A stretch of 32,000 nt of DNA, from the NCBI RefSeq assembly GCF_022701215.1, contig NZ_CP089976.1:1950001-1982000 (forward strand), in the 5' to 3' direction. The stretch's first letter is position 1. Each line of letters starts with the position of its first letter. The position numbers and the translations under genes were made by a program. This document shows, piece by piece, positions 1-23,014 of this stretch. Source of the DNA: Moraxella nasovis. Its GTDB lineage: Bacteria > Pseudomonadota > Gammaproteobacteria > Pseudomonadales > Moraxellaceae. Below the pieces are notes generated by a model. It worked only from the letters and a program-made list of their open reading frames with translations. It did no database searches and was not told the origin of the DNA.

Positions 1-232
1 ACAAAACAACAAAAATACAGCTAAAATCTAGTTGCATTTTTGTTGCTTTAAAAAACCACCATTAACTCATGTGATAAGGTAGCTTGTGATCAATTTTTTG
101 TAGTTTCGAAGCTTAAATTGTTAGTTGCACAGCAATTTTGTTTTAAAGTTAAGGTGAATTAAGTTTGTGAATTGTCAGGTTTGTTCTGATAATTAAAGTC
201 TATGGTATTTTTTTAAAAAGTTAAGAGTTTTT

Positions 233-1438: not shown

Positions 1439-1669
1439 AGGAGCTGTGCTAGATTAGCCTTACATTGCCACCATTTTCTTACTATTTTAGGCTGGTTGCA
1501 GGCAAGCCTAGTTAACTCTTAAACTTTTGTCTATCATAAAAAGGTAAACGTTTTTCTTGTTAATACCGCTGTATGTGCCTTAGCGTCTTTAACCACCATA
1601 TAAACCTTGCATACGCTTATTTTTGATAAAGTCAAAAATAATTGCAACTATATCACTAAATAAATTTAC

Positions 1670-1698
1670 TTGTATCAACCCCCATTTTTGGTTACAAT
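1670..1698 (+). promoter_or_regulatory. Putative sigma70 promoter for the RDD-ung-tadA gene string
   Basis: TTGTAT (1670-1675), a 17-nt spacer, then TACAAT (1693-1698), about 27 nt upstream of the ATG at 1725. Confidence 0.35.
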
Positions 1699-1724
1699 AG
1701 CCCAAATTTTAACCCTATTTTATC

Positions 1725-2666
1725 ATGAAAATCTATTTAGCACGCAATAATATCCAAGCAGGTCCTTATGGGTTAGATGAAATAAACCACATGTTAGCAA
1801 GCAATGAAGTTTTGTTGACGGATTTGATGTGGCATAAGGGCATGACGACATGGCAAGCAGTGGGAGAAGTCACCAAAGGGGCTTTAACATATCAGCCAAA
1901 CCTTGATTTAGGTACAGCACAGCCTGAACCACAAGCAGGTGCTTTTGGTGATAATGTTGAAATGCGTGACGCCAAAAGACGTATTAGCGTGGCAGAATTA
2001 TATGGCAAAAAACCTGAGCAGACCACTCATCAAACACAGCAAAACCACACATTCAAACCTACCGAACCTACTAAAGAGCCAGAAATTTGGCAAGGTCGTC
2101 ATAGAATGCAGACACAGGTGGCAGCACAGGCGGTAGTGTATGCGTCAGTATTAAAGCGGTTTTTGGCGACGTGCGTAAATATGCTACTATTTATAGTGGC
2201 ATTCATGCCATTTGTGCAGTCATTTATGGCACTAAATCCTAATGCAGATAAGCTAACCCAAGGTGATTTTGAAGCACGCTTAGCTTATGCCCAAGAGCTG
2301 ACCCAGACCATCGATCCAACAGGGGCGAATATGACGCTGATGATGCTAATTGGCTTGTTGGTAGTACAGCTGATTATGCTGATTATGCGAGGACAGTCCA
2401 TTGGTAAGCTTGCACTTGGCATTCGTATCGTGGATATGAATACGCATCAGCGTGCTGGTATTGCTAAGATTGTTGGTGTGCGTGGCGTGTTATTATTTAT
2501 CATCTACTGGATTGCGTCTGCCATTCCATTTCAGCTAAATATCATCTTACTTGCCATAAACTACTTTATGGCAAGTAAACACCCCAAAAAACAAGGCTGG
2601 CATGATCGTCTTGCCAAGACAGTGGTGGTCAAAGCCCACCCCGCACAACTACAAAAAGATAAGTAA
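1725..2666 (+). CDS. GYF_2(DUF4339)-like N-terminal domain fused to an RDD-family membrane domain
   Basis: The N-terminus MKIYLARNNIQAGPYGLDEINHML…WHKGMTTWQAVGEV is the typical GYF_2 pattern. The C-terminal half has 3 TM segments and ends in …GWHDRLAKTVVV, the RDD-family signature. Confidence 0.8.
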   Translation: MKIYLARNNIQAGPYGLDEINHMLASNEVLLTDLMWHKGMTTWQAVGEVTKGALTYQPNLDLGTAQPEPQAGAFGDNVEMRDAKRRISVAELYGKKPEQTTHQTQQNHTFKPTEPTKEPEIWQGRHRMQTQVAAQAVVYASVLKRFLATCVNMLLFIVAFMPFVQSFMALNPNADKLTQGDFEARLAYAQELTQTIDPTGANMTLMMLIGLLVVQLIMLIMRGQSIGKLALGIRIVDMNTHQRAGIAKIVGVRGVLLFIIYWIASAIPFQLNIILLAINYFMASKHPKKQGWHDRLAKTVVVKAHPAQLQKDK

Positions 2667-2668
2667 TC

Positions 2669-3373
2669 ATGGATAAAGCGGCCATATTAGCACGAGTACA
2701 GCTACCTGATGACTTTAAATTTGCACTGGCAGATGTGCTTACAAGCGACAGTATGGCAAGCTTGCGTGCGTTTTTGCAAGCCGAATACGCCCAGAATAAG
2801 ACGATTTACCCACCAAAGTCACAAATTTTTAATGCACTAAATACCACGCCTTTATCACAGGTGAAAGTGGTGATTTTGGGTCAAGATCCTTATCATGGGG
2901 CAGGGCAAGCGATGGGCTTATCATTTAGCGTTCCAAAAGTCGTCCCAAAGCCACCATCACTACAAAATATCCTAAAAGAGCTGTCTAATGACTTGCATAT
3001 TCCAATCAGCAATCATGGCGATTTGACGTATTGGGCAAGTCAAGGCGTGCTATTATTGAATGCGGTGCTAACTGTAGAAGCGGGGCGGGCGGGTAGCCAT
3101 GCAGGCAAAGGCTGGGAGTTATTTACTGATGCGGTGATTGACGTCATTAATACTCAGACTACCAACACAGTATTTATTTTGTGGGGTAGTTATGCTAAGA
3201 AAAAAGGACGGTTTATCGATCCAAATCGCCATCTTATCTTAACTGCAAACCACCCATCGCCACTATCGGCAAATCGTGGCGGCTTTTTTGGTACAAGTCC
3301 CTTTTCACGCACCAATGATTATCTGATACGTCATGGCAAAGCACCGATTGACTGGGCATTGCCACAGACATAA
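2669..3373 (+). CDS. ung: Uracil-DNA glycosylase
   Basis: Family-1 UDG motifs are present: VVILGQDPYHG (water-activating loop) and HPSPLSA (Leu-intercalation loop). The length is 234 aa. Confidence 0.95.
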   Translation: MDKAAILARVQLPDDFKFALADVLTSDSMASLRAFLQAEYAQNKTIYPPKSQIFNALNTTPLSQVKVVILGQDPYHGAGQAMGLSFSVPKVVPKPPSLQNILKELSNDLHIPISNHGDLTYWASQGVLLLNAVLTVEAGRAGSHAGKGWELFTDAVIDVINTQTTNTVFILWGSYAKKKGRFIDPNRHLILTANHPSPLSANRGGFFGTSPFSRTNDYLIRHGKAPIDWALPQT

Positions 3374-3394
3374 GTGCGACTTTAGGCTTAAGCG

Positions 3395-3949
3395 ATGACA
3401 CCGTTTATTTTGGCTAGTACCCCAAAAGTCACCGATTTGCAGGCATTGCAGTTTTGGAGCGTGCAAGATGTTATGATGATGAACAAAGCCTTATATCTTG
3501 CTGATATCGGAGCAAGCCTTGGAGAGGTGCCAGTAGGTGCGGTGGTCGTGTATAAGGGTGAGATTATCGGTGAGGGTTATAACCGTCCTATCATAGATGC
3601 AGACCCTACTGCCCACGCAGAGATAGTCGCTGTTCGTAAGGCTTGCCATCATCTGAATAATTATCGCTTACCGATGGGTGCAACGTTATATATCACGCTT
3701 GAGCCATGCACGATGTGCCTTGGCATGATGGTTCATGCACGCATTAGCAGAGTGGTGTTTGGAGCAACAGAACCAAAAGCAGGCGTAGCAAAAAGCCAAC
3801 TATCCTTACACACCATGCCGTTTTATAACCATTTGATTGATATACAAGGTGGCTTGCTTGCCTATGAATGCGGACAGAGATTAAGCCAGTTTTTTAAGAA
3901 CAGACGCAAGCAAAAACGCCAAACTAAGAATGTAGAACAAGCTACCTAG
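3395..3949 (+). CDS. tadA: tRNA-specific adenosine deaminase
   Basis: CDA-fold zinc motifs HAE (…DPTAHAEIVAVR…) and PCxxC (LEPCTMCLGMM) are present. The start is uncertain; internal Met codons near 3472-3480 are alternatives. Confidence 0.9.
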   Translation: MTPFILASTPKVTDLQALQFWSVQDVMMMNKALYLADIGASLGEVPVGAVVVYKGEIIGEGYNRPIIDADPTAHAEIVAVRKACHHLNNYRLPMGATLYITLEPCTMCLGMMVHARISRVVFGATEPKAGVAKSQLSLHTMPFYNHLIDIQGGLLAYECGQRLSQFFKNRRKQKRQTKNVEQAT

Positions 3950-4030
3950 GACCAATTATAATTAGTTGATAAATTTTCACCTTTTTTCACCTTAAAGGCG
4001 TGATTTTTGGTATGATAGGTTTTATTTGTC

Positions 4031-5257
4031 ATGGAATTAATAATGAATCAGCAGGCACCTATCATCACAAGCCTTCTTGATAATGACTTGTACAAATTTA
4101 CCATGTTACAAGCCATGCTCCACCACTTCCCCCAAACCCATAGTGTATATCGGTTCCGCTGTCGTAATAATGATGCAGCCGCCTATCCATTAGCAGATAT
4201 TAAGGCAGAGCTAGAAGCACAGTTAGATTTACTATGTGAGCTAAAATTCACCCAAGATGAGCTGACTTATTTGCGTGGATTAAGATTTATCAAGTCTGAT
4301 TTTGTTGATTATTTGGAGTTATTTCAACTAAAACGCCGTTTTATTAAGGTAACGGTAGATGAAGAAGGGCGATTGTGCATAGACATTGAAGGACCGATGA
4401 TTCAAGCGATGTTCTTTGAGATATTTGTTTTGTGTATTGTCAGTGAACTATACTATCGCAGATTAGATGATAAAAAGGCACTAACGATAGGTCAAAAGCG
4501 GCTTGATGATAAAGTGGCGTTACTTCAAGAATATGCCAAATTACAAACCCAAGATACTCAAAATCCGCCATTTGTTATTGCTGATTTTGGGACACGCAGA
4601 CGCTTTAGTAAGGCGTGGCATTATCATGTGGTTGAGACTTTGGCTAAGTCATGCCCATCTGTTTTTCGTGGCACTTCTAATGTATATTTAGCAAAACAGC
4701 TGGATATTACGCCGATTGGTACGATGGCACATGAATTTATGCAGGCATTTCAAGCATTAGACGTTCGCCTAAGAGACAGCCAAAAGGCAGCACTAGAATG
4801 CTGGGTGCGTGAATATCGTGGCGACCTAGGTATTGCACTGACAGATGTTGTTGGGATGGATGCGTTTTTGCGTGATTTTGACTTATATTTTGCCAAGCTC
4901 TTTGATGGGCTGCGTCATGACAGTGGCAACCCGTATGAGTGGGGTGATAAGGCGATTCATCATTATAATAAACTAAAAATAGACCCAAAAACCAAAAGCC
5001 TAACTTTTAGTGATGGTTTGACGATTGAAAAGGCGTGGGATTTACATCAATATTTTAAGCAAAGAATAAAAACGGCATTTGGCATTGGCACAAATTTAAC
5101 AAACGACATGGGTGTAACTCAGTTAAACATCGTTTTAAAACTTGTACAATGTAACGGTCAGCCTGTCGCTAAACTGTCTGACAGCATTGGCAAGACCATG
5201 ATTCAAGATGAAACGTATTTGGCATATTTACGCCAAGTGTTTGAAATCACGCCTTAA
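4031..5257 (+). CDS. pncB: Nicotinate phosphoribosyltransferase
   Basis: The N-terminus …[18 protein letters not shown]…, then …FGTRRR… and …[10 protein letters not shown]…, are typical PncB blocks. The start could be the ATG at 4043 (MNQQ…). Confidence 0.9.
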
Positions 5258-5359
5258 TTGGTATAAAACCAAGATAAGATGGATGCTTAAAATAGCCGAC
5301 TTTATGAGTGGGCTATTTTACTAAATATGGGCATTTTACTAAGTGTGGGCGTGTACTGG

Positions 5360-5590
5360 CTAGATCTCACCATCAAAGGCGTTTTTTAGGGCAAGATCAA
5401 CGGCATGAATGCGTTTTTGACAGATTTTATAGGCATTGATTGATTCTTCTACGGTTGTGATGAGATTATCAATATCAAGCTCTGACGACTGTTCTAGTGC
5501 ATTGGCATTGCGTTGCAAGACTTCATAAGCGTCTTTAAAGCTACTGTTTTCATCAATTAAAATCGGATTGGTGTTATTTGGTTTGTTCAT
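5360..5590 (-). CDS. xseB: Exodeoxyribonuclease VII small subunit
   Basis: A 76-aa helical protein. FKDAYEVLQRNANALEQS…DIDNLITTVEESINAYKICQKRIHAVDLALKNAF matches the XseB pattern. Confidence 0.8.
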   Translation of the reverse strand: MNKPNNTNPILIDENSSFKDAYEVLQRNANALEQSSELDIDNLITTVEESINAYKICQKRIHAVDLALKNAFDGEI

Positions 5591-5683
5591 AATACACTCA
5601 AGCTTAATGTGGTTATTTTATTGTACTCGTTTTGTCAAAAAACCACAAGAAGCAGCCAAAGACTTTTATCGCACATAAACTTT

Positions 5684-5711
5684 TTGACAAACATTATCTT
5701 TCTGATATGAT
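5684..5711 (+). promoter_or_regulatory. Putative sigma70 promoter for the DASS transporter gene
   Basis: TTGACA (5684-5689), a 16-nt spacer, then TATGAT (5706-5711). Confidence 0.4.
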
Positions 5712-5840
5712 AGGCGAGCATAGTATAAAATCGTGACAAGGCAGTAAGATTTTATACACAAGCGTTACTTTTTTAACAGTCAAATAACATAATTTACCCG
5801 CATAGGATATACGGTTGATGGTTATTTGCAAGGAGCTTGT

Positions 5841-7289
5841 ATGACTCAGTTACATCAAGATAAAGATTCTTCTTTTACTCAAGAAAGTGATTTTCTAGCC
5901 GATGATAATCACACACCGCCGTCAGGTTCGGCACATTCTGAAGCGATTAAGGGCGTGATAATCACTGCTATCGCTGCAATCATTGCCTACTTTTTATACG
6001 CCAATGTTTTACCATTTGATGATTTGGCAAATAAAGGCTTGGCGTTGGCAATCTTCGTTGGTATTTTATGGCTTACAGAAGCCATTCATATCACAGCGAC
6101 CGCTATTCTTGTGCCGATACTTGCAATATTTATTGGGATTCCTGACTTTGATACTAAAACAGCCTTATCATCGTTCTCAGATCCGATTATCTATGTGTTC
6201 TTTGGTGGTTTTGCTTTGGCTGCAACCATGCATGTACAAAAACTTGACCAAAAAATTGCATACAGCTTAATGGGTTTGGCTCGTGGGCATCTTGGTGTGG
6301 CAGTGCTGTTAATCTTTGCTACCACAGCAGGGCTGTCTATGTGGATTAGTAACACAGCAACCGCAGCGATGATGTTGCCGTTAGCATTAGGGCTACTTAC
6401 ACAAATAGACGCTAAAAAAGACCGCAATACGTTCATCTTCGTGTTGCTTGGTATCGCTTATTCTGCATCAATCGGCGGTCTGGGTACTTTGGTAGGCTCA
6501 CCACCGAACGCCATTGCCGCCAAAGAGATTGGTCTTGATTTTGCAGGTTGGACTAAGATTGGCTTTCCAGTCGCACTTGTTATGATGCCAGTTTTATTAG
6601 GTGCGATGTATTTAGTATTACGCCCAAATCTAAACCAAAAGGTGGATATGGGAAATCGTGAAGCTGTACCTTGGACGCTGCCACGCGTACTGACGATTAT
6701 TGTGTTCTTTGTAACAGCAGTGAGCTGGATTTTTGGCAAGCAGCTTGGTCAGACGTTTGGGTTTGATAAACCAGATACGGTGATTGCCATCTTGGCGGCA
6801 GTAGTTGTGCTATTGTTTGGATTGGTCAGCTGGAAACAAATCTCTGATAATACTGACTGGGGAGTACTCATGCTGTTCGGTGGTGGTATCGCTTTATCAA
6901 ACATCATGAAAAGCACAGGAGCTTCGGCGGTATTAGGTGAGCAGATTTCAGCTTGGCTTGCAAATGCACCGACTTTACTTGTGATTGTAGCGATTGCTGC
7001 GTTTATTATATTTTTGACAGAGTTCACGTCAAACACCGCATCAGCTGCACTACTTGTGCCAATCTTTGCACCTATTGGTGTTGCGTTAGGCTTACCAAAA
7101 GAAGTATTGATATTGGTTATTGGTATCGGTGCATCATGTGCATTTATGTTACCTGTAGCAACACCACCAAACGCTATCGTGATGGGTACAGGTTATATCA
7201 AGCAACGAGATATGATGAGAATCGGTTTTGTGCTAAATCTCGCCTCCATCGTTATTGTAACCATTTTTGCCTATTGGTTCTGGCGTTAA
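5841..7289 (+). CDS. DASS/SLC13-family anion (di/tricarboxylate or sulfate):sodium symporter
   Basis: A polytopic membrane protein with the duplicated SNTA(T/S)AA and PPNAI hairpin motifs (WISNTATAAMMLP…GSPPNAIA; FTSNTASAALLVP…ATPPNAIV). The ATG at 5841 has an AAGGAG RBS. The track's 5826 start is a non-ATG extension. Confidence 0.85.
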   Translation: MTQLHQDKDSSFTQESDFLADDNHTPPSGSAHSEAIKGVIITAIAAIIAYFLYANVLPFDDLANKGLALAIFVGILWLTEAIHITATAILVPILAIFIGIPDFDTKTALSSFSDPIIYVFFGGFALAATMHVQKLDQKIAYSLMGLARGHLGVAVLLIFATTAGLSMWISNTATAAMMLPLALGLLTQIDAKKDRNTFIFVLLGIAYSASIGGLGTLVGSPPNAIAAKEIGLDFAGWTKIGFPVALVMMPVLLGAMYLVLRPNLNQKVDMGNREAVPWTLPRVLTIIVFFVTAVSWIFGKQLGQTFGFDKPDTVIAILAAVVVLLFGLVSWKQISDNTDWGVLMLFGGGIALSNIMKSTGASAVLGEQISAWLANAPTLLVIVAIAAFIIFLTEFTSNTASAALLVPIFAPIGVALGLPKEVLILVIGIGASCAFMLPVATPPNAIVMGTGYIKQRDMMRIGFVLNLASIVIVTIFAYWFWR

Positions 7290-7301
7290 TTTTAACGTTA
7301 A

Positions 7302-10121: not shown

Positions 10122-10532
10122 TTACGCCATCAAATCACGACTGGCAAGCTGCGCCAAATAGTTGCTACGGCTTTTATATAGCGATTTATGAGCGGATACT
10201 TTTTCATCAATCCGTGCAATCAGACGAGATGGCAAGGTTACGTTGATTTTTTCGCTTTTACCCATATAGGCAGATAGGTCAATATCTACCACCGCCCATG
10301 TCATGCCTTGATAGTCTGGGTTTTTTGCATGGTCTGCAACATTTTTGGCAAGTGGAATGTCATCACCGTCCTTTGCTAATCCGTCAAGGTGTAGGCTGAT
10401 GGCTTCATGAACGCTTTTGATGGCATCATCTAAACTGTTTCCTGCACTAAAACAGCCTGGTAAGTCAGGGACAATCACGCCAAAACATTCATTATCATTG
10501 GCAGGGCTTTCAATGGCGATGGGGTAATACAT
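10122..10532 (-). CDS. hicB: HicB antitoxin (RNase-H-like N-domain plus RHH C-domain)
   Basis: MYYPIAIE…FGVIVPDLPGCFSAG.SLDDAI…EAI.LHL is the canonical HicB N-terminus. The C-terminal …INVTLPSRLIARIDEKV… is a ribbon-helix-helix. Confidence 0.9.
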   Translation of the reverse strand: MYYPIAIESPANDNECFGVIVPDLPGCFSAGNSLDDAIKSVHEAISLHLDGLAKDGDDIPLAKNVADHAKNPDYQGMTWAVVDIDLSAYMGKSEKINVTLPSRLIARIDEKVSAHKSLYKSRSNYLAQLASRDLMA

Positions 10533-10564
10533 GGGTTCTCCTATGGGATTAAGTGCCAGCTGGG

Positions 10565-10747
10565 TTAGTTTAACCCAGCTTGTTTTAAAATGCTCTTGTA
10601 GGTGCCAATGGGTATGTCTTTGTCAGGGTGCTTTACCGTAACTTTCCCCTTTTTAGTGGGGTGTTTGTATTGGTGATGGCTACCAACTACGTTTACTTCA
10701 TACCAACCGTCATCAATGAGCATTTTGATGATAACACGGCTTTGCAC
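10565..10747 (-). CDS. hicA: HicA mRNA interferase toxin
   Basis: A 60-aa ORF with …KMLIDDGWYEVNVVGSHHQYKHPTKKGKVTVKHP.KDIPIGTYKSILKQAGL, the HicA signature. It has a GTG start and an AGGAG RBS. Confidence 0.9.
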   Translation of the reverse strand: MQSRVIIKMLIDDGWYEVNVVGSHHQYKHPTKKGKVTVKHPDKDIPIGTYKSILKQAGLN

Positions 10748-10776: not shown

Positions 10777-10805
10777 ATTATAACCCCAAATGACAATTAG
10801 TTCAA
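10777..10805 (-). promoter_or_regulatory. hicAB promoter
   Basis: The minus strand reads TTGAAC (10805-10800), a 17-nt spacer, then TATAAT (10782-10777). Three GAGTTATT(A/T) repeats flank it (10772-10780, 10807-10815, 10816-10824). Confidence 0.5.
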
Positions 10806-10856
10806 GAGTTATTAGAGTTATTTTTAAAAATATTTGATAAAAAAGGAGCGTAAGCT

Positions 10857-11321
10857 ATGGCGAAACTTACGCCAAAACAAGAACAATTTTGCCAAAAATA
10901 CATAGAGCTGGGCAATGCGTCTGAAGCCTATCGCCAAAGCTACAATGCTAAAAATATGAAAGATGAAACGGTTAACCGCAACGCAAAAGCCTTATTAGAC
11001 AACAACAAGATTACAACAAGATTAAACGAACTTCGCCAAGCCCACGCCAACCGCCATGATGTGACGATTGATGAGATGTTATCAGCTTATGATGAAGCAT
11101 ATCAAATCGCCAAACTGAACGAGAACCCAACGGCGATGATTAGTGCCATTAATGCCAAAGTTAAGGTCTTAGGCATGGATAGGCAGTCAAAATCAGAGAT
11201 TAGGATTAAAGAGTTAGAAGCCCAATTAAAACAGCTTGAAATTGACCGCCTAAAAGCTCAGATGATAGACACTACAGGCAATGAAATTCAAATTAACGTG
11301 GTAAGGGTTAAAAATGAATGA
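10857..11321 (+). CDS. Terminase small subunit
   Basis: MAKLTPKQEQFCQKYIELGNASEAYRQSY…NAKALL.NNKI is the typical Terminase_2-type N-terminal HTH. It overlaps the TerL start by 4 nt. Confidence 0.85.
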   Translation: MAKLTPKQEQFCQKYIELGNASEAYRQSYNAKNMKDETVNRNAKALLDNNKITTRLNELRQAHANRHDVTIDEMLSAYDEAYQIAKLNENPTAMISAINAKVKVLGMDRQSKSEIRIKELEAQLKQLEIDRLKAQMIDTTGNEIQINVVRVKNE

Positions 11322-12502
11322 AATTAGATTTAACACTGACCGCTCCACAAGACGACTTTGTATTTAGTGATGAGATTTATCCGCTATTTGTCGGTGGTTT
11401 TGGTAGCGGTAAATCAGAAGCGTTATTTAAACGCTTAATTATCCAAAAGCTAAAATACAGACAGTTAAGCCAAGGGTATTTTGCTCCAACGCATGATTTG
11501 ATACGGCTTATTGCTTTTCCACGCATTAGCCAACTGCTGACAGATTGCGGTTTGTCGTTTAAGCTTAATAAATCTGAAAAGATATTTTATATCGCAGGTT
11601 TTGGTGAGATTATTTGCCGTAGCATGGATAATCCTGATAGCATTGTTGGTTTTGAAATTGCTGACGCTGTTATTGATGAGCTAGATACCTTAAAGACTGA
11701 ACACGCTAAAAATGCGTGGAATAAAATCATCGCGCGGTGCCGTCAAAAAAAGCCTGATGGCAAGCCAAACACGGCAGCAGTTGGCACAACGCCAGAGGGC
11801 TTTCGTTTTTGTTATGAGCGTTGGGTAAAAAATAGCGGTACGCACTATCAGCTGTATCAAGCACCAACCGCGTCAAATCCTTATTTACCGCCAAGCTATA
11901 TAGACAGCTTAAAGGCAAGTTATCCACAAAAGTTATTAGATGCTTATCTAAACGGTCAATTTGTCAACTTAACAAGCGGTGCGGTTTATCCTGACTTTGA
12001 CCGTGTTTTAAATCACACAGACGCTGTTATTCAGGCAGGCGAGACCTTGCACATAGGTATGGACTTTAACGTGCTTAAAATGGCGTGCGTGGTGTTTGTC
12101 GTGCGTGATGGTATGCCTTTGGCGGTAGATGAGATAACAGGCGTTAGAGATACGCCAACGATGGCACAGATACTAAAAGAACGCTATAGCGGTCATGAAA
12201 TTTGTATTTACCCTGACGCAAGCGGACATAATACAAGTTCTAAAAACGCAAGTCTTTCAGACCATGATATTTTAAGACAATATGGCTTAAAGGTCTATGT
12301 AAACAGCACCAATCCAAGCATTAAAGACCGCTTAAATGCGGTTAATCGCTTAATCTTAGATGGGCAAGGTAAGCGAACATTTAAGGTAAACACCAAGCAA
12401 TGCACCGAGCTTACAGACGCACTAGAACAGCAGGTGTATGATAAAAACGGTATGCCCGTCATCAAGGTAAAACCAACAGCCAAATACGCCAAATCATATT
12501 AG
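11318..12502 (+). CDS. Terminase large subunit, C-terminally truncated
   Basis: Walker A is VGGFGSGKS. Nuclease-domain acidic motifs GMDFN and YPDASG are present. The ORF ends …YDKNGMPVIKVKPTAKYAKSY without the expected final DH..DA..Y-type block. The tail of the ORF is MuF-derived sequence read in another frame. Confidence 0.8.
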   Translation: MKLDLTLTAPQDDFVFSDEIYPLFVGGFGSGKSEALFKRLIIQKLKYRQLSQGYFAPTHDLIRLIAFPRISQLLTDCGLSFKLNKSEKIFYIAGFGEIICRSMDNPDSIVGFEIADAVIDELDTLKTEHAKNAWNKIIARCRQKKPDGKPNTAAVGTTPEGFRFCYERWVKNSGTHYQLYQAPTASNPYLPPSYIDSLKASYPQKLLDAYLNGQFVNLTSGAVYPDFDRVLNHTDAVIQAGETLHIGMDFNVLKMACVVFVVRDGMPLAVDEITGVRDTPTMAQILKERYSGHEICIYPDASGHNTSSKNASLSDHDILRQYGLKVYVNSTNPSIKDRLNAVNRLILDGQGKRTFKVNTKQCTELTDALEQQVYDKNGMPVIKVKPTAKYAKSY

Positions 12503-12795
12503 GTACAAAAGCACGCCGTTATCAAGATGGTATTACCAACGTAACCAAACGCCATGCTAATGCCATTGTAAGAACTATTGTACAACATGAAGCGTCACAA
12601 GCTAGGGGAGAACTTGCCAAACAGCTAGGCATTGATGAGATTAAAGTAGTAGCAACCTTAGATGGTCGCACAAGTAGCATTTGCCGTAGCCTTGATGGGC
12701 AAATCTTACCTTTATCACAAAAACCGCCTTATCATGTTAATTGCCGTACAAGCTACATTTTATGGCATGGCAAAGATGTAAAAACTCGTGCAAGT
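12445..12795 (+). pseudogene. Start-less internal fragment of a MuF/SPP1-gp7-type head morphogenesis protein, in frame with ORF 12796-13830
   Basis: Frame 1 is open from 12445 with no ATG, GTG or TTG. It reads …GTKARRYQDGITNVTKRHANAIVRTIVQHEASQARGE…VVATLDGRTSSICRSLDGQILPLSQKPPYHVNCRTS…, the conserved ATLDxRTxxxCxxLDG…PPxHxNCR core of the Phage_Mu_F domain. Confidence 0.7.
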
Positions 12796-13830
12796 ATGAA
12801 CGGAGTAGTTAAAAACCAAACCTATTATGAATGGCTTGCCACGCAAGATGATAAGTTTCAAGATTTTGTATTAGGTAAAGAGCGTGCTAAGTTATTTCGT
12901 GATGGCGGTTTATCACCCACAGAATTTAGCGATTTACAGCTGGATAAAAACTTTAAGCCTAGAACGCTTGATGAGATTAGGGCAATAGAGCCTAAGGGGT
13001 TTGAAGGGGTGTTTGGTGATGTGTTACAATCATCAAAAATAGATGAGAGTGCCATAATGCGAACTGATTGGGGTGATTTTCCTAATGCGTTAATTGCTCA
13101 CACCAAAGATACCATCACCACGCATAAATACTACCAAAAAGCCAAGGCGGGTGATGCACAAAGTGCGTTTTTATTGGTTGATGAGTTTTTGAGTGATGAC
13201 TTTGTCAAGGAAATGGGTCAATCCATACGTCATTATAAGGATGTGCATATTGTGCCAGTTCATGCCGAAGAACAACAAGGGCGTAATAAGATCCCTATGG
13301 CGTACGCATTGGCGTTGTCAGAAATACTAGGTGTTAAGATGGACTTGGGGATTGTACAAGCAGACAGGGCGTATCGTACGTCATCTGATGGGGTTGGACG
13401 GCTACTAAAGCGTGTGAATTTTGACGGTGATGTGGTGGCAGGTCGCCATTATGTGATTGTTGATGATGTCATCACACAAGGCGGTACTTTGGCAGATTTA
13501 CACAGTTTTATTGAAAATAAAGGCGGCAGTGTGATTTTGGCAAGTACCTTGAATGGTAAGCCAAATTCTGCTAAACTACCCATAACAAAAGCTACGCTTG
13601 GGCAATTCGCAAACAAGCTGGCAAAGAACTTGAACACTGGTGGCAGGAGCAATTTGGTTATGACTTCTCAAAATTCACAGAATCTGAAGCAAGATACCTT
13701 GCCAAACAAATCCACAGGTACGGCATTGACAGCGTCCGAGATACGCTCTTTACGTCAAGACTTAAAAGAGGCTTATGAACAAGGCAAGGGTTTTTTCAAG
13801 GCTAGGCGATTGCAGACCTCTCACTATTAG
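12796..13830 (+). CDS. MuF C-terminal linker fused to a type-I phosphoribosyltransferase-like domain. The 3' end is probably corrupted.
   Basis: GRHYVIVDDVITQGGTLADL is a classic PRPP-binding loop (hydrophobic4-DD-x-x-T-x-G-x-T). It is preceded by VHIVPVHAEEQQGRNKIPMAYALALS. After about 13600 the given frame becomes low-complexity, while frame 0 reads a plausible AIRKQAGKELEHWWQEQFGYDFSKFTESEARYLAKQIHRYGIDSVRDTL. Confidence 0.6.
   Translation: MNGVVKNQTYYEWLATQDDKFQDFVLGKERAKLFRDGGLSPTEFSDLQLDKNFKPRTLDEIRAIEPKGFEGVFGDVLQSSKIDESAIMRTDWGDFPNALIAHTKDTITTHKYYQKAKAGDAQSAFLLVDEFLSDDFVKEMGQSIRHYKDVHIVPVHAEEQQGRNKIPMAYALALSEILGVKMDLGIVQADRAYRTSSDGVGRLLKRVNFDGDVVAGRHYVIVDDVITQGGTLADLHSFIENKGGSVILASTLNGKPNSAKLPITKATLGQFANKLAKNLNTGGRSNLVMTSQNSQNLKQDTLPNKSTGTALTASEIRSLRQDLKEAYEQGKGFFKARRLQTSHY
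12941..13005 (+). repeat. 65-nt homology block, copy 1 (linker LDKNFKPRTLDEIRAIEPKGFE)
   Basis: tggataaaaactttaagcctagaacgcttgatgagattagggcaatagagcctaaggggtttgaa differs at only 3 positions from 13936-14000. Two of the 3 differences are synonymous. Confidence 0.9.
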
Positions 13831-13904
13831 AGACAAAATCCTTGCGTCAAGACCTTAAAGATGCCTATCATCAGATAATGAAAATGGATCAAAAATGATA
13901 ATCA

Positions 13905-13933
13905 AACACCGTTCTAAATGAGCGGTGTTTTTT
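13905..13933 (+). terminator. Rho-independent terminator after cassette 1
   Basis: AACACCG-ttctaaatgag-CGGTGTT plus a T-run. It is nearly the same element as 14631-14658, and both are followed by ATTGGATAA. Confidence 0.7.
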
Positions 13934-13934
13934 A

Positions 13935-14480
13935 TTGGATAAAAACTTTAAACCTAGAACACTTGATGAGATTAAGGCAATAGAGCCTAAGGGGTTTGAA
14001 AGGGCGTTTAAAAATCCCTTACCGATTGATGATGGTAGCTTAAAACAAAATATTGAACGTCTATTACCAAAGGTGAAGAACCTAGATAGAAATAGTTCAA
14101 TGGCGTTTAGAAAACAACACGCCATAGGGCAAAAATGGACAGTAGCAACCATCAGTGAGAAAGCACAAAAACAGTTAGGTGCAAAAACAAAAGACGTTTG
14201 GCTATCTGATGATACCTTAATCAAAATGATTATCCATCACCCAGAACAGGCGGATTTACCACTATTTTTATCGGTGCAGGATATTTTAGATAATGCGATT
14301 ACAGTTATTCAAGAAGATGATTATAGAGCAAGTTTTTTTAAACGTGGCGATGGTATTTATCAAGCAACCCTAAAAGCCACGCAAGACAGACAAGAGATTT
14401 ATTTGTTGACGGTTTTTAAGATGAGTGAGAAAGAATTTGAGAAGACTAAGAAAAGAAAGGCAAATAAGATAATAAAATAG
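13935..14480 (+). CDS. Orphan MuF C-terminal cassette with no ATG or RBS. The domain resembles the MuF_C / phage BECR-like (PBECR) alpha+beta domains.
   Basis: It opens with the repeated linker (L)DKNFKPRTLDEIKAIEPKGFE. Then …DVWLSDDTLIKMIIHHPEQADLPLFLSVQDILDNAITVIQEDD.RASFFKRGDGIYQATLKAT.DRQEIYLLTVFKMS… resembles domains found at the ends of MuF or polyvalent phage proteins (from memory). The only possible start is TTG inside the terminator tail. Confidence 0.55.
   Translation: MDKNFKPRTLDEIKAIEPKGFERAFKNPLPIDDGSLKQNIERLLPKVKNLDRNSSMAFRKQHAIGQKWTVATISEKAQKQLGAKTKDVWLSDDTLIKMIIHHPEQADLPLFLSVQDILDNAITVIQEDDYRASFFKRGDGIYQATLKATQDRQEIYLLTVFKMSEKEFEKTKKRKANKIIK
13936..14000 (+). repeat. 65-nt homology block, copy 2 (5' end of the orphan cassette)
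   Basis: See 12941-13005. It begins directly after the terminator T-run. Confidence 0.9.
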
Positions 14481-14578
14481 CTACTGGTGGGACTACCACT
14501 CCCCACACCCTCCCTCTTACCCCACACGCTAGCGTGCTGTGGTTACGGCAGGTAGAATTCACCGTGTCGCAGTAGCTA
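14478..14578. other. C-rich structured element: a 9-bp closing inverted repeat enclosing a G-quadruplex/i-motif consensus and a 12-nt palindrome
   Basis: TAGCTACTG (14478-14486) pairs with CAGTAGCTA (14570-14578). C-tracts lie at 14501-04, 14508-10, 14512-14 and 14520-23, so the minus strand reads GGGG-TAAGA-GGG-A-GGG-TGT-GGGG. The palindrome CACGCTAGCGTG is at 14524-14535. Confidence 0.4.
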
Positions 14579-14630
14579 TATTGTTATTATACAGCTATTT
14601 ACTTAATTTATCAAATGGCTATAAGAATAT

Positions 14631-14658
14631 AACACCGTCTTTTGGCGGTGTTTTTTTT
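14631..14658 (+). terminator. Rho-independent terminator after cassette 2, a duplicate of 13905-13933
   Basis: AACACCG-tcttttgg-CGGTG plus T8, followed by ATTGGATAA (14659-14667). Confidence 0.7.
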
Positions 14659-14670
14659 ATTGGATAACCT

Positions 14671-15054
14671 ATGAACACCACAACCATACAAAAACTAATC
14701 GCCAAGCATATCGCCACTATGCCAAATTATAATCCTAAGGCATGGGTTACAGGCAATCATAACTATGTACCTACCGATATATGGCATAGAGTAAGCCTAC
14801 AAAGTGCAGGGGCTATCATGAGCGGTATGGCAGATAAGCCTATGAGCCGTGAGATAGGGGCGGTGGTGGTGCAAGTATTTACAAGGCAAAATATTGGCGA
14901 AAAAAGAGCAGTAGAACAAGCAGACACCATCGCTAATCATTTGGCGTATTATACTGATGAAAACTTAGAATTATTAACGCCATCGGTGGTTATAGTCGGT
15001 AGTGATAACGACTGGTGGCAAGTTAATGTGAGAGTGCCTTATCGGTATAAGTAA
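14671..15054 (+). CDS. Tail terminator / tail completion protein (DUF4128-like, gpU functional analog)
   Basis: A 127-aa ORF immediately upstream of the tail tube gene. Its end …WWQVNVRVPYRYK and overall pattern resemble the DUF4128 tail-terminator family (from memory). Confidence 0.55.
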   Translation: MNTTTIQKLIAKHIATMPNYNPKAWVTGNHNYVPTDIWHRVSLQSAGAIMSGMADKPMSREIGAVVVQVFTRQNIGEKRAVEQADTIANHLAYYTDENLELLTPSVVIVGSDNDWWQVNVRVPYRYK

Positions 15055-15086
15055 GCAAATTTTTGATTAAAATTCTAGGGTTTAGT

Positions 15087-15209
15087 ATGCAATCTATCAA
15101 TTTAAAGCCTGACAATTTTATTAAATTCTTTTGGCACATTGTGCTAATGATAGCGTTTTTAAAAGTAGTATGGGTAATTACCAACATTGCATTAGTGCAT
15201 TTTGGTTAA
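15087..15209 (+). CDS. Possible 40-aa single-TM peptide (MQSINLKPDNFIKFFWHIVLMIAFLKVVWVITNIALVHFG)
   Basis: An ATG ORF below the track's length cutoff, with a hydrophobic core and its own terminator at 15208-15243. The RBS is weak (tagggtttagtATG). Confidence 0.3.
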   Translation: MQSINLKPDNFIKFFWHIVLMIAFLKVVWVITNIALVHFG

Positions 15210-15243
15210 GCCCTTAGCAATCGCCCATTAGGGCTTTTTTTTT
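15208..15243 (+). terminator. Rho-independent terminator
   Basis: AAGCCCT…AGGGCTT stem followed by T9. Confidence 0.6.
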
Positions 15244-15254
15244 GGAGTAAATTT

Positions 15255-16175
15255 ATGTCAAGCGGTGCAAAAGTAGTAACAGCGTATGCCAAGCAGACCA
15301 CAAAAACCGTGCCAACTACAGGCTGGAAAATCTTGCCAAATATCAAAAACGGCTTATCGGTTAATAACACACTAACTGATAGCGAAATGTTATCAGGTTC
15401 ACGGATTAAATCGGCAGGCATGGTAACAGGCGGTGAAGTAGCAGGCGAGATAGAAACCGAATTACAATATGGCGTCTATGATGAGCTATTAGAAGCGGCA
15501 TTTTTTAATGAATGGCAAGCAGACGCAAGAAATACTAAGTTAAAAAAGCTTAGCATTGGTGATACTAAAAAGATGTTTGCCATATCAAAAGACTTTAGCG
15601 ATATTAACGTAAACCACGTCTTTACAGGCTGTGTTATCAATAGCCTAAAAATTGACATTACGACTGATAATCTTATCAAAGCTAATTTTGGGGTGATGGG
15701 GCAAGGCTATCAGCATAGCAAAGAGACATCATTTGCTAAAACCCCTGCTACTGCTACTGTAGGCAAACCTGCAAGCGGTTTATCCATCGGAACGATTAAA
15801 AAAGATGGTGCTGATATTGGTATTTGTGTTGAAAGCTTTAGTTTTGAGATTGACAATGGGGCAGAAGTACAAAAGTGCTTAGGCGATAATATCTATGGCG
15901 GTAATATCGTCGCTATGCTTGCTAATATTTCAGGCAGTTTAACGCTTGCCTATGGCGTAAAATCGCATGATTTAATCGTCAATCAATTAACAGGGGCAAC
16001 CGTATCGCTAGAAATCCCCATTTCATTTAATGAAACAGATAAATACATTATCAAAATACCAAAAATGCAAGTATCAGGGGAAATTCCAAGCCCATCAGGC
16101 ACTGACCTTGTCACCATTGATGTTAGCTATACCGTCGTTGAAGAAAGCCCAATTATTGAAAAACACCAAGCATAA
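15255..16175 (+). CDS. Major tail tube protein (gpV analog)
   Basis: A 306-aa ORF with a GGAG RBS in the canonical position (terminator protein - tube - chaperones - tape measure). The composition is beta-rich and Gly/Ser/Thr-rich. Confidence 0.7.
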   Translation: MSSGAKVVTAYAKQTTKTVPTTGWKILPNIKNGLSVNNTLTDSEMLSGSRIKSAGMVTGGEVAGEIETELQYGVYDELLEAAFFNEWQADARNTKLKKLSIGDTKKMFAISKDFSDINVNHVFTGCVINSLKIDITTDNLIKANFGVMGQGYQHSKETSFAKTPATATVGKPASGLSIGTIKKDGADIGICVESFSFEIDNGAEVQKCLGDNIYGGNIVAMLANISGSLTLAYGVKSHDLIVNQLTGATVSLEIPISFNETDKYIIKIPKMQVSGEIPSPSGTDLVTIDVSYTVVEESPIIEKHQA

Positions 16176-16186
16176 GGAGAACACAC

Positions 16187-16654
16187 ATGGCATTTAGTTT
16201 AAAAGACTTAAAAAAACCAAATCAAGTTGTTGGCGAAGTAGTACGCACGATTAAGCACAAAAGCGGTTTACAGCTTGAGCTTGTTGTCAAACAAGACACC
16301 GCCTTTGAAAGGGCTTTATCTAAAGTACAAACCTTATTGAATGACACCAAGATTAAAAAAGATGATTTAAAGCGTGCTAACCAAACCGATATTACAACTA
16401 ATGAAGCTTTACTAATGGTTATCGGTGAATACAACATTAAATCATGGAATGTAGATGTAAACGGTGAGCCTTTAGAGCCTAGCGGTGATAACCTGCTTAT
16501 TGTCTTAGCAAATATCAGTGATGGCTTGCCTGAGCTTTTAAACACGCTATTTGACACCTTTACCGAGATGGGGCATGAATATAGTGAACAGGTGCAAGCT
16601 GTGAAAAAAAAGCCATCGAGTACTACAAATGGCAAAAAACAAAGTCAGAATTAA
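16187..16654 (+). CDS. Tail assembly chaperone (gpG analog)
   Basis: A 155-aa acidic ORF directly before the tape measure, with an AAGGAG RBS. It contains a slippery heptamer near its 3' end. Confidence 0.7.
   Translation: MAFSLKDLKKPNQVVGEVVRTIKHKSGLQLELVVKQDTAFERALSKVQTLLNDTKIKKDDLKRANQTDITTNEALLMVIGEYNIKSWNVDVNGEPLEPSGDNLLIVLANISDGLPELLNTLFDTFTEMGHEYSEQVQAVKKKPSSTTNGKKQSQN
16606..16612 (+). promoter_or_regulatory. -1 programmed ribosomal frameshift site A_AAA_AAG
   Basis: In the gpG-analog zero frame the codons are GTG AAA AAA AAG CCA, so the heptamer A AAA AAG is in the correct phase. The -1 frame is open from 16588 to 16905. Confidence 0.6.
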
Positions 16655-16905
16655 GCCCAAAGCGGATTGAGATTTATCAAAGGTTAAACCTACCCTTGCC
16701 TAATGAGGTTTTGGGTAGTGCTTTACTTGATGATATTATCCATGTATTTGTGATGGCTTGCCGTGAAAGACGTTATGCAGAAGGTACGCCCTTACCGCTA
16801 TCGGTTAGCGATGTTAGCCATGTACTCGCGGTGTATCATGTGAATATGGCAAGATGGCTGATTGATGATATTGTTTTTGCATTAGATGAGATTGTAAGGG
16901 GATAA
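16609..16905 (+). CDS. gpT-like extension of the chaperone (G-T fusion by -1 frameshift); DUF1799-like
   Basis: The -1 frame reads KAIEYYKWQKTKSELSPKRIEIYQRLNLPLPNEVLGSALLDD…DEIVRG and has no ATG of its own. The track ORF 16696-16905 starts at TTG. It ends 1 nt before the tape measure ATG. Confidence 0.55.
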   Translation, partial: KAIEYYKWQKTKSELSPKRIEIYQRLNLPLPNEVLGSALLDDIIHVFVMACRERRYAEGTPLPLSVSDVSHVLAVYHVNMARWLIDDIVFALDEIVRG

Positions 16906-21848: not shown

Positions 21849-22631
21849 ATGATACCCAAAACCAAAACACATGAAGCCTATGAGTATCTAAAAAATTATC
21901 ACGGATTAACCAATCCTAATAGTTTTAAATATTTGTCATGGCTAAATAGTGCTGAAAAGTTAATTAAAACAGACCCAGTAGATGGATATGTTTTACAAGG
22001 TTTTGCACATATGGCTTTGGGCGATATACAATCAGCAGTTCAAAGCATGAAAAAGGCATATTTATTAAATAATATAGTTGCTACTTATAATTATGCAACA
22101 CTATTGTATAAATCTGGCGAATTTAGTCAAAGCCATCAAATGTGCTTAAATGTACTCAATAAAGACCCTTATGATAGCAATATTATTGAAGTTGTCCTTA
22201 GTAATGCAAGCAGAAGTTTAGATTTAAATATACTTAATGAAGCATTTGAATTATTTCAAGGTGGAAATTTATATATTGACAATCAAAAAATTAAGGCTAT
22301 TGATTTCATTAAAAATACAATATCAAAACTTAAAATAACAAATATTACACAAGATAATTTTGTATATATTTATAGTTTACTTAATAGATTTTTATCAAAG
22401 CACTATATTGGTGACTATTATGTTGATGTGGATGTTAGCCAAACAGAAATTGGTAATATACTTAATATAGATATTTATTTAAATAATGTGGGAACTGATG
22501 ATTGTTTAGACTTAGATGATAAATTCTTAGATGTATTGATTGATGATAGTCAGCTTAATTTTGATGATTATAAAAATATCATCGTGCATTTCATTCCTGC
22601 CAAATATGACGATTTGGAGTGTATGCAATGA
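21849..22631 (+). CDS. Hypothetical 260-aa protein with an N-terminal TPR-like helical repeat region and an acidic Asp/Asn-rich C-terminal half
   Basis: It has a strong RBS (caGGAGc). Residues ~42-110 (DGYVLQGFAHMALGDIQSAVQSMKKAYLLNN…ATYNYATLLYKSGEFSQSHQMCLNVLNKDPYD) look like two to three TPR units. No nucleotidyltransferase GS…DxD motif is present. Confidence 0.55.
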   Translation: MIPKTKTHEAYEYLKNYHGLTNPNSFKYLSWLNSAEKLIKTDPVDGYVLQGFAHMALGDIQSAVQSMKKAYLLNNIVATYNYATLLYKSGEFSQSHQMCLNVLNKDPYDSNIIEVVLSNASRSLDLNILNEAFELFQGGNLYIDNQKIKAIDFIKNTISKLKITNITQDNFVYIYSLLNRFLSKHYIGDYYVDVDVSQTEIGNILNIDIYLNNVGTDDCLDLDDKFLDVLIDDSQLNFDDYKNIIVHFIPAKYDDLECMQ

Positions 22632-23014
22632 CGGTGAATATTAATGATTTACATAAATGTATTGATGAGATGTTTATTAATATTAATGAACAATCATCAG
22701 AAAGTCAGATGAGGGCGTATATCAACCGTAGTTATTATGCTGTTTTTCATGAGTTAAAAATGGCTATGGAAAGTGTAGGGATTGATATTAATCAATACAA
22801 AACAGGCACTCATAATAATCTATGCTTGATACTTGATGATATGAAAAATCAAAATAAATCCATACAAAAACTCGCTTTGCAGTTTAGAGATTTTTTAACC
22901 CAACGCCACAATGCAGATTATGATTTGGATAAAAATATAACTTGGCATCATGTAAAAGTCATCATGCAATATAAACAGAATTTACCTTCATTGATTAAAG
23001 AACATATTAAATAA
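22628..23014 (+). CDS. Small HEPN-domain protein (UPF0332-like)
   Basis: INRSYYAVFHELKMAMESVGI…GTHNNL…FLTQRHNADYDLD matches the RaYYAmFHaa…H…R..aDY layout of UPF0332-type HEPN proteins (from memory). The ATG at 22628 overlaps the upstream stop as ATGA, with GGAG 8 nt upstream. The track start 22619 is a GTG. Confidence 0.6.
   Translation: MTVNINDLHKCIDEMFININEQSSESQMRAYINRSYYAVFHELKMAMESVGIDINQYKTGTHNNLCLILDDMKNQNKSIQKLALQFRDFLTQRHNADYDLDKNITWHHVKVIMQYKQNLPSLIKEHIK

Follow-up and report, generated by a model that had tools for sequence, protein, structure and literature searches.

Proteins of the MuF family with variable C-terminal toxin domains were described by Zhang et al. 2012 (PMC3482391) and Jamet et al. 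2017 (PMC5576092). Fusions of a MuF domain with a phosphoribosyltransferase (PRTase) domain or a PBECR domain are named as the "simplest architectures" by Iyer et al. 2017 (PMC5512222), and it is proposed there that such proteins are packaged in the phage head and injected. The present study concerns a locus of Moraxella nasovis that has both architectures and lies in a prophage remnant within a stretch of 32,000 nucleotides (nt) of the chromosome (contig NZ_CP089976.1, positions 1,950,001 to 1,982,000), below called the window; all features are on its forward strand unless stated otherwise. In this locus, the remnant of a MuF gene with a PRTase domain is followed by an orphan open reading frame (ORF), in which a short stub of the MuF tail precedes a PBECR3 domain, a predicted BECR-fold ribonuclease (RNase). 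A MuF-effector locus is of a known kind, and the new features are the orphan with its readable recombination junction and its putative RNA partner. The locus probably represents the fossil scar of a recombination within a cryptic prophage remnant, left by one unequal illegitimate crossover, and not an operating cassette system.

The locus is similar to the MuF polymorphic toxins in that it is prophage-encoded and has a conserved MuF module, present in a short form or with variable extensions; both extensions found in the window, the PRTase (about 255 aa) and PBECR3 (about 155 aa), comprise at least 100 aa, and relatives from Moraxella carry bona fide toxin domains (a CdiA-type tRNase and an ADP-ribosyltransferase, ART) together with small ORFs. 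Unlike these toxins, the locus of the window has a truncated MuF, a PRTase that does not count among the recognised toxins, and no immunity ORF after either domain. No ORF exists between 13830 and 13935, and the interval 14481-14670 contains none save a 42-codon ORF with a GTG start that overlaps the RNA element and the terminator described below. The lack of immunity genes fits the proposed head packaging and injection. The window matches the effectors of Iyer et al. in possessing MuF-PRTase and MuF-PBECR architectures; that work, however, presents domain architectures, with no tandem or orphan copies and no associated RNA element. Orphan cassettes and recombination junctions are not described in the main text of Jamet et al. 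or Zhang et al., and the words "orphan", "recombination" and "Moraxella" do not occur in the former. An orphan module, a recombination junction of a MuF toxin and Moraxella were likewise not found in the MuF papers or by a full-text literature search.

The C-terminal part of the MuF (head morphogenesis) core occupies positions 12445-12940, as revealed by profile matches and reading of the frames. Its homology to MuF is certain, though the N-terminal ~146 codons have been deleted and only the C-terminal ~60% of the gene is left, which corrects the original description of the locus. The Phage_Mu_F profile (PF04233) is matched only at positions 22-111, with 27.8 bits (cutoff 29.6), and phrog_241 at positions 181-559 of 679 (E 7e-72); the loss of the N-terminal codons explains why the latter match begins at 181. 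The frame opens at 12445 behind two stop codons, its first in-frame start is the ATG at 12796, and its product shares 72% amino-acid identity with the MuF protein of M. caviae. The gene is situated in the morphogenesis module of the prophage, between the terminase and tail genes.

The core is followed by the conserved C-terminal tail of MuF (LDKNFKPRTLDEIRAIEPKGFEGVF, 12941-13014), which returns at 13936-14009 as a stub of 24 codons heading the orphan. The two copies (direct repeat family D1) form the longest repeat in the region, comprising 74 nt with 93% identity (5 of 74 positions differ). The recurrence of a 65-nt linker with three differences, two of them synonymous, had been noticed earlier, and the repeat has proved to be longer than that core, in which AAG>AAA and ACG>ACA are synonymous and AGG>AAG replaces R with K. 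Profile searches also bore out the expectation that unrelated domains follow the two copies. The domain after copy 1 (13015-13830) matches Pribosyltran (PF00156, E 1e-6, 28.6 bits, cutoff 26.3). The domain after copy 2 (14010-14480) matches PBECR3 (PF18812, E 3e-5) with 24.4 bits, which is under the cutoff of 30; the M. caviae homologue of this domain exceeds the cutoff (32.2 bits). The orphan retains all 29 columns that are invariant in the alignment of the clade, and its residues 1-177 align with 54% identity to P0004, a full-length MuF-PBECR3 homologue of 496 aa encoded on contig L118 (the L numbers designate the compared loci).

The orphan ORF is intact (13935-14480), and its product of 181 aa is 100% identical to M. 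nasovis LU293_09460 of the NCBI record. It had been described as having neither an ATG nor a ribosome-binding site. Indeed, no Shine-Dalgarno sequence precedes it, but a TTG is present at 13935, only 5 nt past the stem of a terminator, and it is from this codon that the NCBI product starts (MDKNF...).

The PRTase frame is damaged. The alignment with Moraxella phage Mcat8 and IMG/VR contig L036 revealed a 1-nt deletion at about 13605, which places the authentic C-terminus of the PRTase in another frame, running to 13778. The extension is 73-77% identical at the amino-acid level to that of the Mcat8 MuF-PRTase; the nucleotide identity of the PRTase cassette with Mcat8 reaches 87-89%, whereas that of the MuF core is only 46-71%. 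At the 3' end of the PRTase, a peptide motif SLRQDLK[DE]AY is repeated at 13738-13781 and 13830-13873 and is readable only by a change of frame. The same change of frame occurs in Mcat8 (L001, 7240-7400), where it is annotated as an overlapping ORF of 39 aa; it could represent shared frameshifts or a recoding site. The upstream MuF-PRTase copy, as read from its sequence, is a 5'-truncated, start-less and frameshifted pseudogene and not an expressed gene.

Both cassettes end with the same terminator-plus-junction element, as had been proposed. Pattern and terminator scans placed intrinsic terminators at 13905-13931 and 14631-14658. The hairpin AACACCG..CGGTGTT has just two occurrences in the whole 32 kb (13905-13929 and 14631-14652; none is expected by chance), each time followed by a T-run and then by TTATTGGATAA, which is also found exactly twice in the window. 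The idea that the terminator is a dispersed genomic repeat or an uptake sequence was rejected, as only these two occurrences exist in the window. The terminators share only their stems, the T-run and the junction, about 38 nt in all; the loops and the 3' untranslated regions upstream differ.

The right-hand join is readable nucleotide by nucleotide. Three sequences were compared for this purpose, namely the beginning of the MuF tail block (cagcTGGATAAaaac), the tail-terminator leader (ttatTGGATAAcctATG) and the junction at 13932-13946 (ttatTGGATAAaaac). The junction proper, TTAT|TGGATAA (13932-13942), has the sequence of the leader (14657-14667) on its left and that of the start of the block (from 12941) on its right, continuing as TTAT|TGGATAA|AAAC, so that the two sides share a microhomology of 7 nt, TGGATAA. 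The native leader (TTATTGGATAAcct, 14657-14670), which provides the 3' homology and the microhomology partner, was located by reading and a pattern scan, and homology to L009, the prophage of M. caviae CCUG 355 and the closest intact relative, picks up again at 14659. A join at 7 nt of microhomology indicates illegitimate rather than homologous recombination. The supposition that both cassettes are bracketed by shared sequence thus stands, but not the mechanism of swapping by homologous recombination that was attached to it.

An assembly artefact, in which two allelic copies of a prophage were mis-joined, would produce a similar picture. Only one assembly carries the tandem (a cluster of one member on one contig), and look-ups of the exact sequence gave no second source. 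Nevertheless, the copies differ at 5 of 74 positions, each of the two flanks is unique and runs collinear with relatives, the contig is a chromosome of 2.03 Mb, and the junction has clean microhomology typical of real illegitimate recombination, which makes an artefact very improbable.

The nature of the repeated block became clear from 115 related loci gathered from cultured Moraxella phages, GTDB genomes and IMG/VR. In about 95 of the 115, the MuF gene ends 4-5 codons past the block (..LQLDKNFKPLTLxxhxxxEPxAFx RAGI*), which means that the block is the conserved C-terminal tail of a short form of MuF. By these alignments, the "linker" is the ordinary C-terminus of short MuF proteins and not a dedicated recombination element. 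Extensions past the block were found only in Moraxella-type phages, always directly after ..EPxxF-(K/R)AF, where five states exist. They include a PRTase allele of 255 aa (Mcat8, L036-39), a PBECR3 allele of 155 aa (M. caviae L005-8, and the 496-aa P0004 on L118), a CdiA_C_tRNase allele (PF18664, 44.7 bits; L040) followed by an ORF of 107 aa, an ART allele (PF01129 and PF03496, 30.8 bits; L041-43) followed by an ORF of 95 aa, and an allele without extension that ends at a stop codon (L044-48, Mcat6, Mcat28). The repeated block is therefore the breakpoint of C-terminal domain variation, as had been suggested. The small ORFs of 107, 95 and 50 aa after the tRNase and ART alleles (L040, 2802-3125; L041, 6794-7081 and 7199-7351) matched no Pfam family and are candidate immunity proteins.

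The expected 3' limit of the variable segment was recovered in the Mcat-type phages, in which the segment closes at a terminator and is followed by a conserved leader (TTTTTTATCATCCGCTGTTTGTAACAGC...) and then by the scaffold gene. In the short allele of these phages, the MuF stop codon lies inside the terminator hairpin AGCATCCATTAGGATGCT (L044, L046), and toxin cassettes (L040, L001) rejoin the conserved sequence at that hairpin, 160 nt upstream of the scaffold gene. This marks the hairpin as the 3' boundary of the variable slot in Mcat-type phages. Meanwhile, the block itself clusters by phage lineage and not by the attached domain. Its identity is 85-89% among Mcat-type phages with four different 3' states, 93% between the copies of the window and 61-72% across lineages, and copy 2 is nearest to copy 1. 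These comparisons support the exchange of C-terminal domains in a slot whose left limit is the MuF tail and whose right limit is formed by the terminator with the next-gene leader. The claim that the phage lineage shuffles effector domains is upheld to this extent, though the tandem itself is probably a single scar with no second copy in related loci: a tblastn search with the block met a single copy per locus in all 115 loci, none of 117 loci besides the window has two of the four C-terminal domain types, and the tandem state is unique to the window among 118 loci.

Two short ENA metagenome contigs from different samples (ERZ28567010 and ERZ28567619), L116 (748 nt) and L117 (717 nt), carry the closest homologue of the PBECR3 domain. 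They are cyclic, with a unit of 693 nt and terminal repeats of 55 and 24 nt, and the unit comprises a MuF-tail stub, PBECR3 and the RNA motif. After the RNA element, a MuF-tail stub follows that is identical to the sequence preceding PBECR3, and a frameshift in a G-run separates the stub from PBECR3. This adjacency of a cassette and a stub hints that one or more other organisms possess a tandem array, an orphan or a circular cassette.

The state of the prophage can be understood from the comparison with L009, in which the genes follow in the order small terminase subunit, large terminase subunit (TerL, 415 aa), portal, scaffold, major capsid, connectors, MuF (334 aa), tail terminator, toxin-antitoxin (TA) pair and tail tube. 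The window is collinear with L009 apart from a single gap of 5,003 nt. According to blastn, window 10841-12456 corresponds to L009 178-1787 and window 12454-12955 to L009 6791-7292, so that the junction of the deletion, confirmed by reading of the sequences, lies at 12454-12456. The deletion took the 3' end of the TerL gene, the portal, scaffold, major capsid and connector genes and ~146 MuF codons, and the terminase gene became fused to mid-muF. The small subunit gene (10857-11321; Terminase_2, PF03592, E 9e-13) is collinear with L009 122-655. The TerL gene (11318-12502), with Terminase_6N and Terminase_6C matches, is truncated C-terminally: the Terminase_6C match ends at profile position 132 of 155, the last ~16 codons are out-of-frame MuF sequence, and the frame stops at 12502. 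The intact M. caviae TerL continues as ..NGMPDKSSGHDHILDAFGY.., and that of the window instead reads ..NGMPVIKVKPTAKYAKSY*. The assumption of two separate deletions flanking MuF was rejected; one 5-kb deletion accounts for the gene order, because muF naturally precedes the tail-terminator gene in this lineage. In the window, the latter gene (14671-15054; phrog_179, E 4e-21) is the conserved right flank of the variable slot, and it lies directly 3' of MuF in M. caviae L009 and L005. The tail module downstream of the deletion looks complete. The element is a head-less prophage remnant without portal and capsid genes.

The MuF protein of L009 terminates 4 aa past the block. An ORF of 111 codons in another frame (L009, 7323-7658) overlaps the MuF stop codon and lies between muF and the tail-terminator gene. 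It carries an HExxH motif (AHEAAH) and could represent a small extension of the metallopeptidase type, or what is left of one; no Pfam family was matched by it.

The original prediction had seen in this locus a working polymorphic-effector system, in which silent orphan cassettes would be swapped with the expressed domain by means of the 74-nt block and the terminator/junction element. The bracketing of both cassettes by shared sequence, the domain polymorphism of relatives exactly at the block, the undamaged orphan ORF and the second cassette-then-stub adjacency implied by L116 and L117 are consistent with it. However, the copy that should be expressed is start-less and frameshifted and belongs to a prophage that has no portal or capsid genes. 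Recombination between direct 74-nt repeats would delete the PRTase cassette instead of swapping it. The shared 3' element comprises only ~38 nt, and the join is at 7 nt of microhomology. Moreover, no second block or domain exists in the 117 related loci, and no immunity genes follow either cassette. A working system of this kind is accordingly improbable, and the claim that copy 1 is the expressed gene is not supported.

Thus, the scar of a single event is the preferred explanation, and the following steps would lead to it. Between the MuF tail (..LDKNF..EPxxF-(K/R)AF) and the next-gene leader lies a hypervariable slot, which holds either no effector domain or one of several. The parents would be two related phage genomes, one with a MuF-PRTase allele and the other with a MuF-PBECR3 allele and its 3' RNA element; since the terminator loops differ and the cassettes are wholly different, the simplest parents are a pair of related nasovis-type phages that differ in their allele. 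A single unequal, illegitimate crossover at TGGATAA, the 7 nt present in the block start and in the tail-terminator leader, would have put the PRTase cassette and its terminator ahead of the 24-codon stub with PBECR3, the RNA element and the second terminator. Decay of the prophage, before or after the crossover, brought the 5-kb deletion with the terminase-MuF fusion and the 1-nt deletion in the PRTase. It seems that a single crossover between two phages took place, with PBECR3 as the resident allele, and that neither of the cassettes is still produced as a head protein.

The resident status of PBECR3 is consistent with a more eroded remnant of the same prophage type in M. caviae (L005, 9000-13700), which adjoins the same dus gene as the prophage of the window and was compared with window 10100-32000. 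Of this prophage there remain hicB, an ORF of 218 aa, the non-coding 3' element also seen in the window, a tail-terminator stub of 34 codons and a higB-like gene. The 218-aa ORF is composed of the MuF tail, the block and PBECR3 in one continuous frame with a new ATG, which fits PBECR3 as a resident allele that was later displaced. The earlier suggestion that the orphan is the displaced previous domain is therefore plausible.

Several points weigh against the single-crossover explanation. The tandem arrangement rests on one assembly, and a nasovis-type phage in which an intact MuF-PRTase gene precedes the tail-terminator gene was not found, so that the parents are hypothetical. A possible recurrence of tandem or stub arrangements is hinted at by the cyclic L116 and L117. 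The orphan may still be expressed and selected, given its intact ORF, its possible TTG start, an invariant internal Met56 and the retained RNA partner. In addition, a homogeneous tandem duplication followed by allele replacement, or a Campbell-type integration of a circle, could give the same structure. For the latter, it may be imagined that the PRTase cassette was looped out of a donor phage as a circle between the two TGGATAA copies on its flanks and then entered the MuF tail of a resident MuF-PBECR3 phage by a homologous crossover of the Campbell type. A single crossover of this type yields a duplicated homology block flanking the insert, i.e., the 74-nt direct repeats, and the predicted junction of the circle, TTAT|TGGATAA, is the observed one. 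This route needs two events as against one unequal crossover, and no circular or free-standing cassette was met in 118 loci, though the cyclic 693-nt unit of L116 and L117 could in principle be one; it is regarded as quite unlikely.

The PBECR3 domain is accompanied by a conserved structured RNA motif (14476-14582), which starts at the stop codon of the domain and was recognised by covariance model R1 (92.2 bits) and by covariation. The RNA is about 100 nt long, is common to the window and every close PBECR3 locus and has the invariant core TACGGC.G..AGA.T.TCACCGTGT. Other instances are located in L005 (10643-10755), L116 (555-662), L118 (3020-3126), L119 (791-882) and L122 (843-951), and L120 contains two tandem copies (2495-2587 and 2590-2705). 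RNAalifold folding of nine sequences gave three elements: a closing helix of 10 bp, with the stop codon overlapped by its 5' arm, a second helix of 4 bp and an inner hairpin that is invariant. In this alignment, 96% of the cells pair, versus 32-48% with slid partners, and compensatory changes are present in 16 of 21 pairs; none of 500 shuffles reached the observed values. At least 120 IMG/VR contigs contain the core pattern, and 80 full-length instances were recovered with the covariance model. In an alignment of 77 distinct sequences, every Watson-Crick pair type is represented in helices 1 and 2, with 94% paired versus 35-50% and covariation of 0.56 versus 0.05-0.10 when the partners are slid. 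The 77-sequence alignment was fitted to the covariance model, and helix 3 was fixed by the search pattern; the weight is therefore placed on helices 1 and 2 and on the independent MAFFT alignment of nine sequences. The G-U pairs fit the coding strand only. A miniature transposable element (MITE) with terminal inverted repeats was considered and rejected, because the arms covary and are not conserved and because of this strand bias of the G-U pairs.

The motif is associated with PBECR genes. For 65 of the 80 instances, the end of an ORF of 100 aa or more lies at the start of the motif, in most cases between -13 and +12 nt from it; these ORFs have mostly 380-500 aa, which corresponds to a full-length MuF-PBECR. 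Moreover, 59 of 69 ORFs upstream of the RNA match a narrow PBECR3 hidden Markov model. A weak match is found exactly at the MuF stop codon of Haemophilus phage SuMu. The motif is absent from D108 (Mu), MP22 and JBD67 and from all PRTase, tRNase, ART and short alleles examined, and its BLAST search against cultured phages gave no match. The Rfam 15 scan of 12000-15500 at E<=1 returned only GcvB (23.7 bits, cutoff 42) and Yfr10, and the scan of 14 motif-bearing loci at gathering thresholds returned only a tRNA elsewhere. Iyer et al. 2017 (PMC5512222) predicted RNA binding for the PBECR domain of Mu gp30 and left the ligand unnamed; an RNA associated with PBECR is not mentioned in the parts searched.

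The co-occurrence suggests that the RNA may be the cognate partner of the PBECR domain, acting as an inhibitor, a decoy or an autoregulatory site. Such a partnership would explain the absence of a protein immunity gene and perhaps the survival of the stub, PBECR3 and RNA in two decayed prophages. The more far-reaching proposal, that the PBECR3 cassette is a self-contained module in which the RNA, as the cognate ligand of the PBECR RNase (an RNA immunity factor or antitoxin, or an autoregulator), replaces the protein immunity gene, seems rather unlikely on the present comparisons.

Type III TA systems of the ToxIN kind combine an endoribonuclease with a structured RNA that is encoded as a 5' repeat array. 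The orphan resembles them in that a predicted RNase lies beside a structured RNA of the same strand with no protein antidote, and the RNA is in tandem in L120. Unlike in these systems, the RNA of the window is 3' of the gene, starts at its stop codon and is usually single-copy; in fold and sequence it is unrelated to known families, with no match to Rfam. By analogy with type III TA systems, the RNA might neutralise the RNase or be processed by it.

It is conceivable, in this connection, that the orphan is now an independent module, consisting of a solo PBECR3 RNase and a cis-encoded structured RNA, which would serve addiction or defence and be kept by selection. The stub, PBECR3 and RNA are intact in both decayed remnants, those of M. 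nasovis and M. caviae, where they are among the few survivors of independent decay, both with intact ORFs. Solo PBECR3 proteins of 120-200 aa are common, and one of them starts at the invariant Met56. The link of the RNA to PBECR stop codons in 65 of 80 instances, its tandem duplicate in L120, the lack of a protein immunity ORF and the TA genes (hicAB, higB) flanking both remnants point in the same direction. On the other hand, neither a promoter nor a Shine-Dalgarno sequence can be discerned, the ORF is preceded at 5 nt by a strong terminator, and survival in just two remnants could be due to chance. An independent module is thus possible but doubtful.

Searches for relatives of ORF2 of the window gave little. 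IMG/VR scans with a single sequence and with a profile found none, and the metagenome scan found only two distant PBECR3 loci. Look-ups of the exact proteins (TerL, tube, tail terminator and ORF2 of the window) matched no record, and megablast of 10800-16700 against cultured phages gave no match.

The comparison with the orphan modules of contact-dependent inhibition (CDI; cdiA-CT/cdiI), Rhs and MafB loci gives a mixed result. As in those loci, a displaced C-terminal domain lies downstream with a short stub of the conserved region, here of 74 nt (24 codons) and 93% identical to the upstream gene, and has a poor start of its own. Unlike in those loci, there is a single orphan and not an array, the upstream gene is dead, and the join is a 7-nt microhomology beside a terminator. 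The orphan is also without an immunity gene, a conserved structured RNA following instead, and the arrangement does not recur in 117 loci. The likeness to a CDI/Rhs/MafB cassette system, as originally drawn, therefore fails for want of an intact main gene, an immunity gene and recurrence.

The surroundings of the locus are as follows. Positions 1-7300 of the window contain ordinary chromosomal genes (a major facilitator superfamily transporter, uracil-DNA glycosylase, nicotinate phosphoribosyltransferase and a symporter). A hicA/hicB-like TA pair is located at 10122-10747 on the reverse strand, directly upstream of the small terminase gene, and the M. caviae remnant has a hicB homologue in the corresponding position. 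The interval from the chromosomal genes to the hicAB pair showed no integrase and no replication module. Further downstream, a low-GC island (21849-23014; 27% versus ~43% around) lies between tail genes L and K; it encodes a tetratricopeptide repeat protein and an ORF of 131 aa and is probably a moron or an insertion.

Exchange of MuF C-terminal domains has so far been inferred only from the diversity of the domains, and the locus of M. nasovis appears to preserve an intermediate of such exchange. The readable junction, together with both slot boundaries known from relatives, provides a concrete recombination model for the diversification of MuF toxins. The RNA motif, which is widespread in phages and closely linked to the stop codon of MuF genes with a PBECR domain, is the first candidate ligand for the PBECR domain, including the C-terminal domain of proteins of the phage Mu gp30 type. 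If the cassette with its RNA partner is indeed a self-contained module, MuF loci of Moraxellaceae would diversify by a displacement similar to that of CDI and Rhs loci, leaving orphan modules behind.

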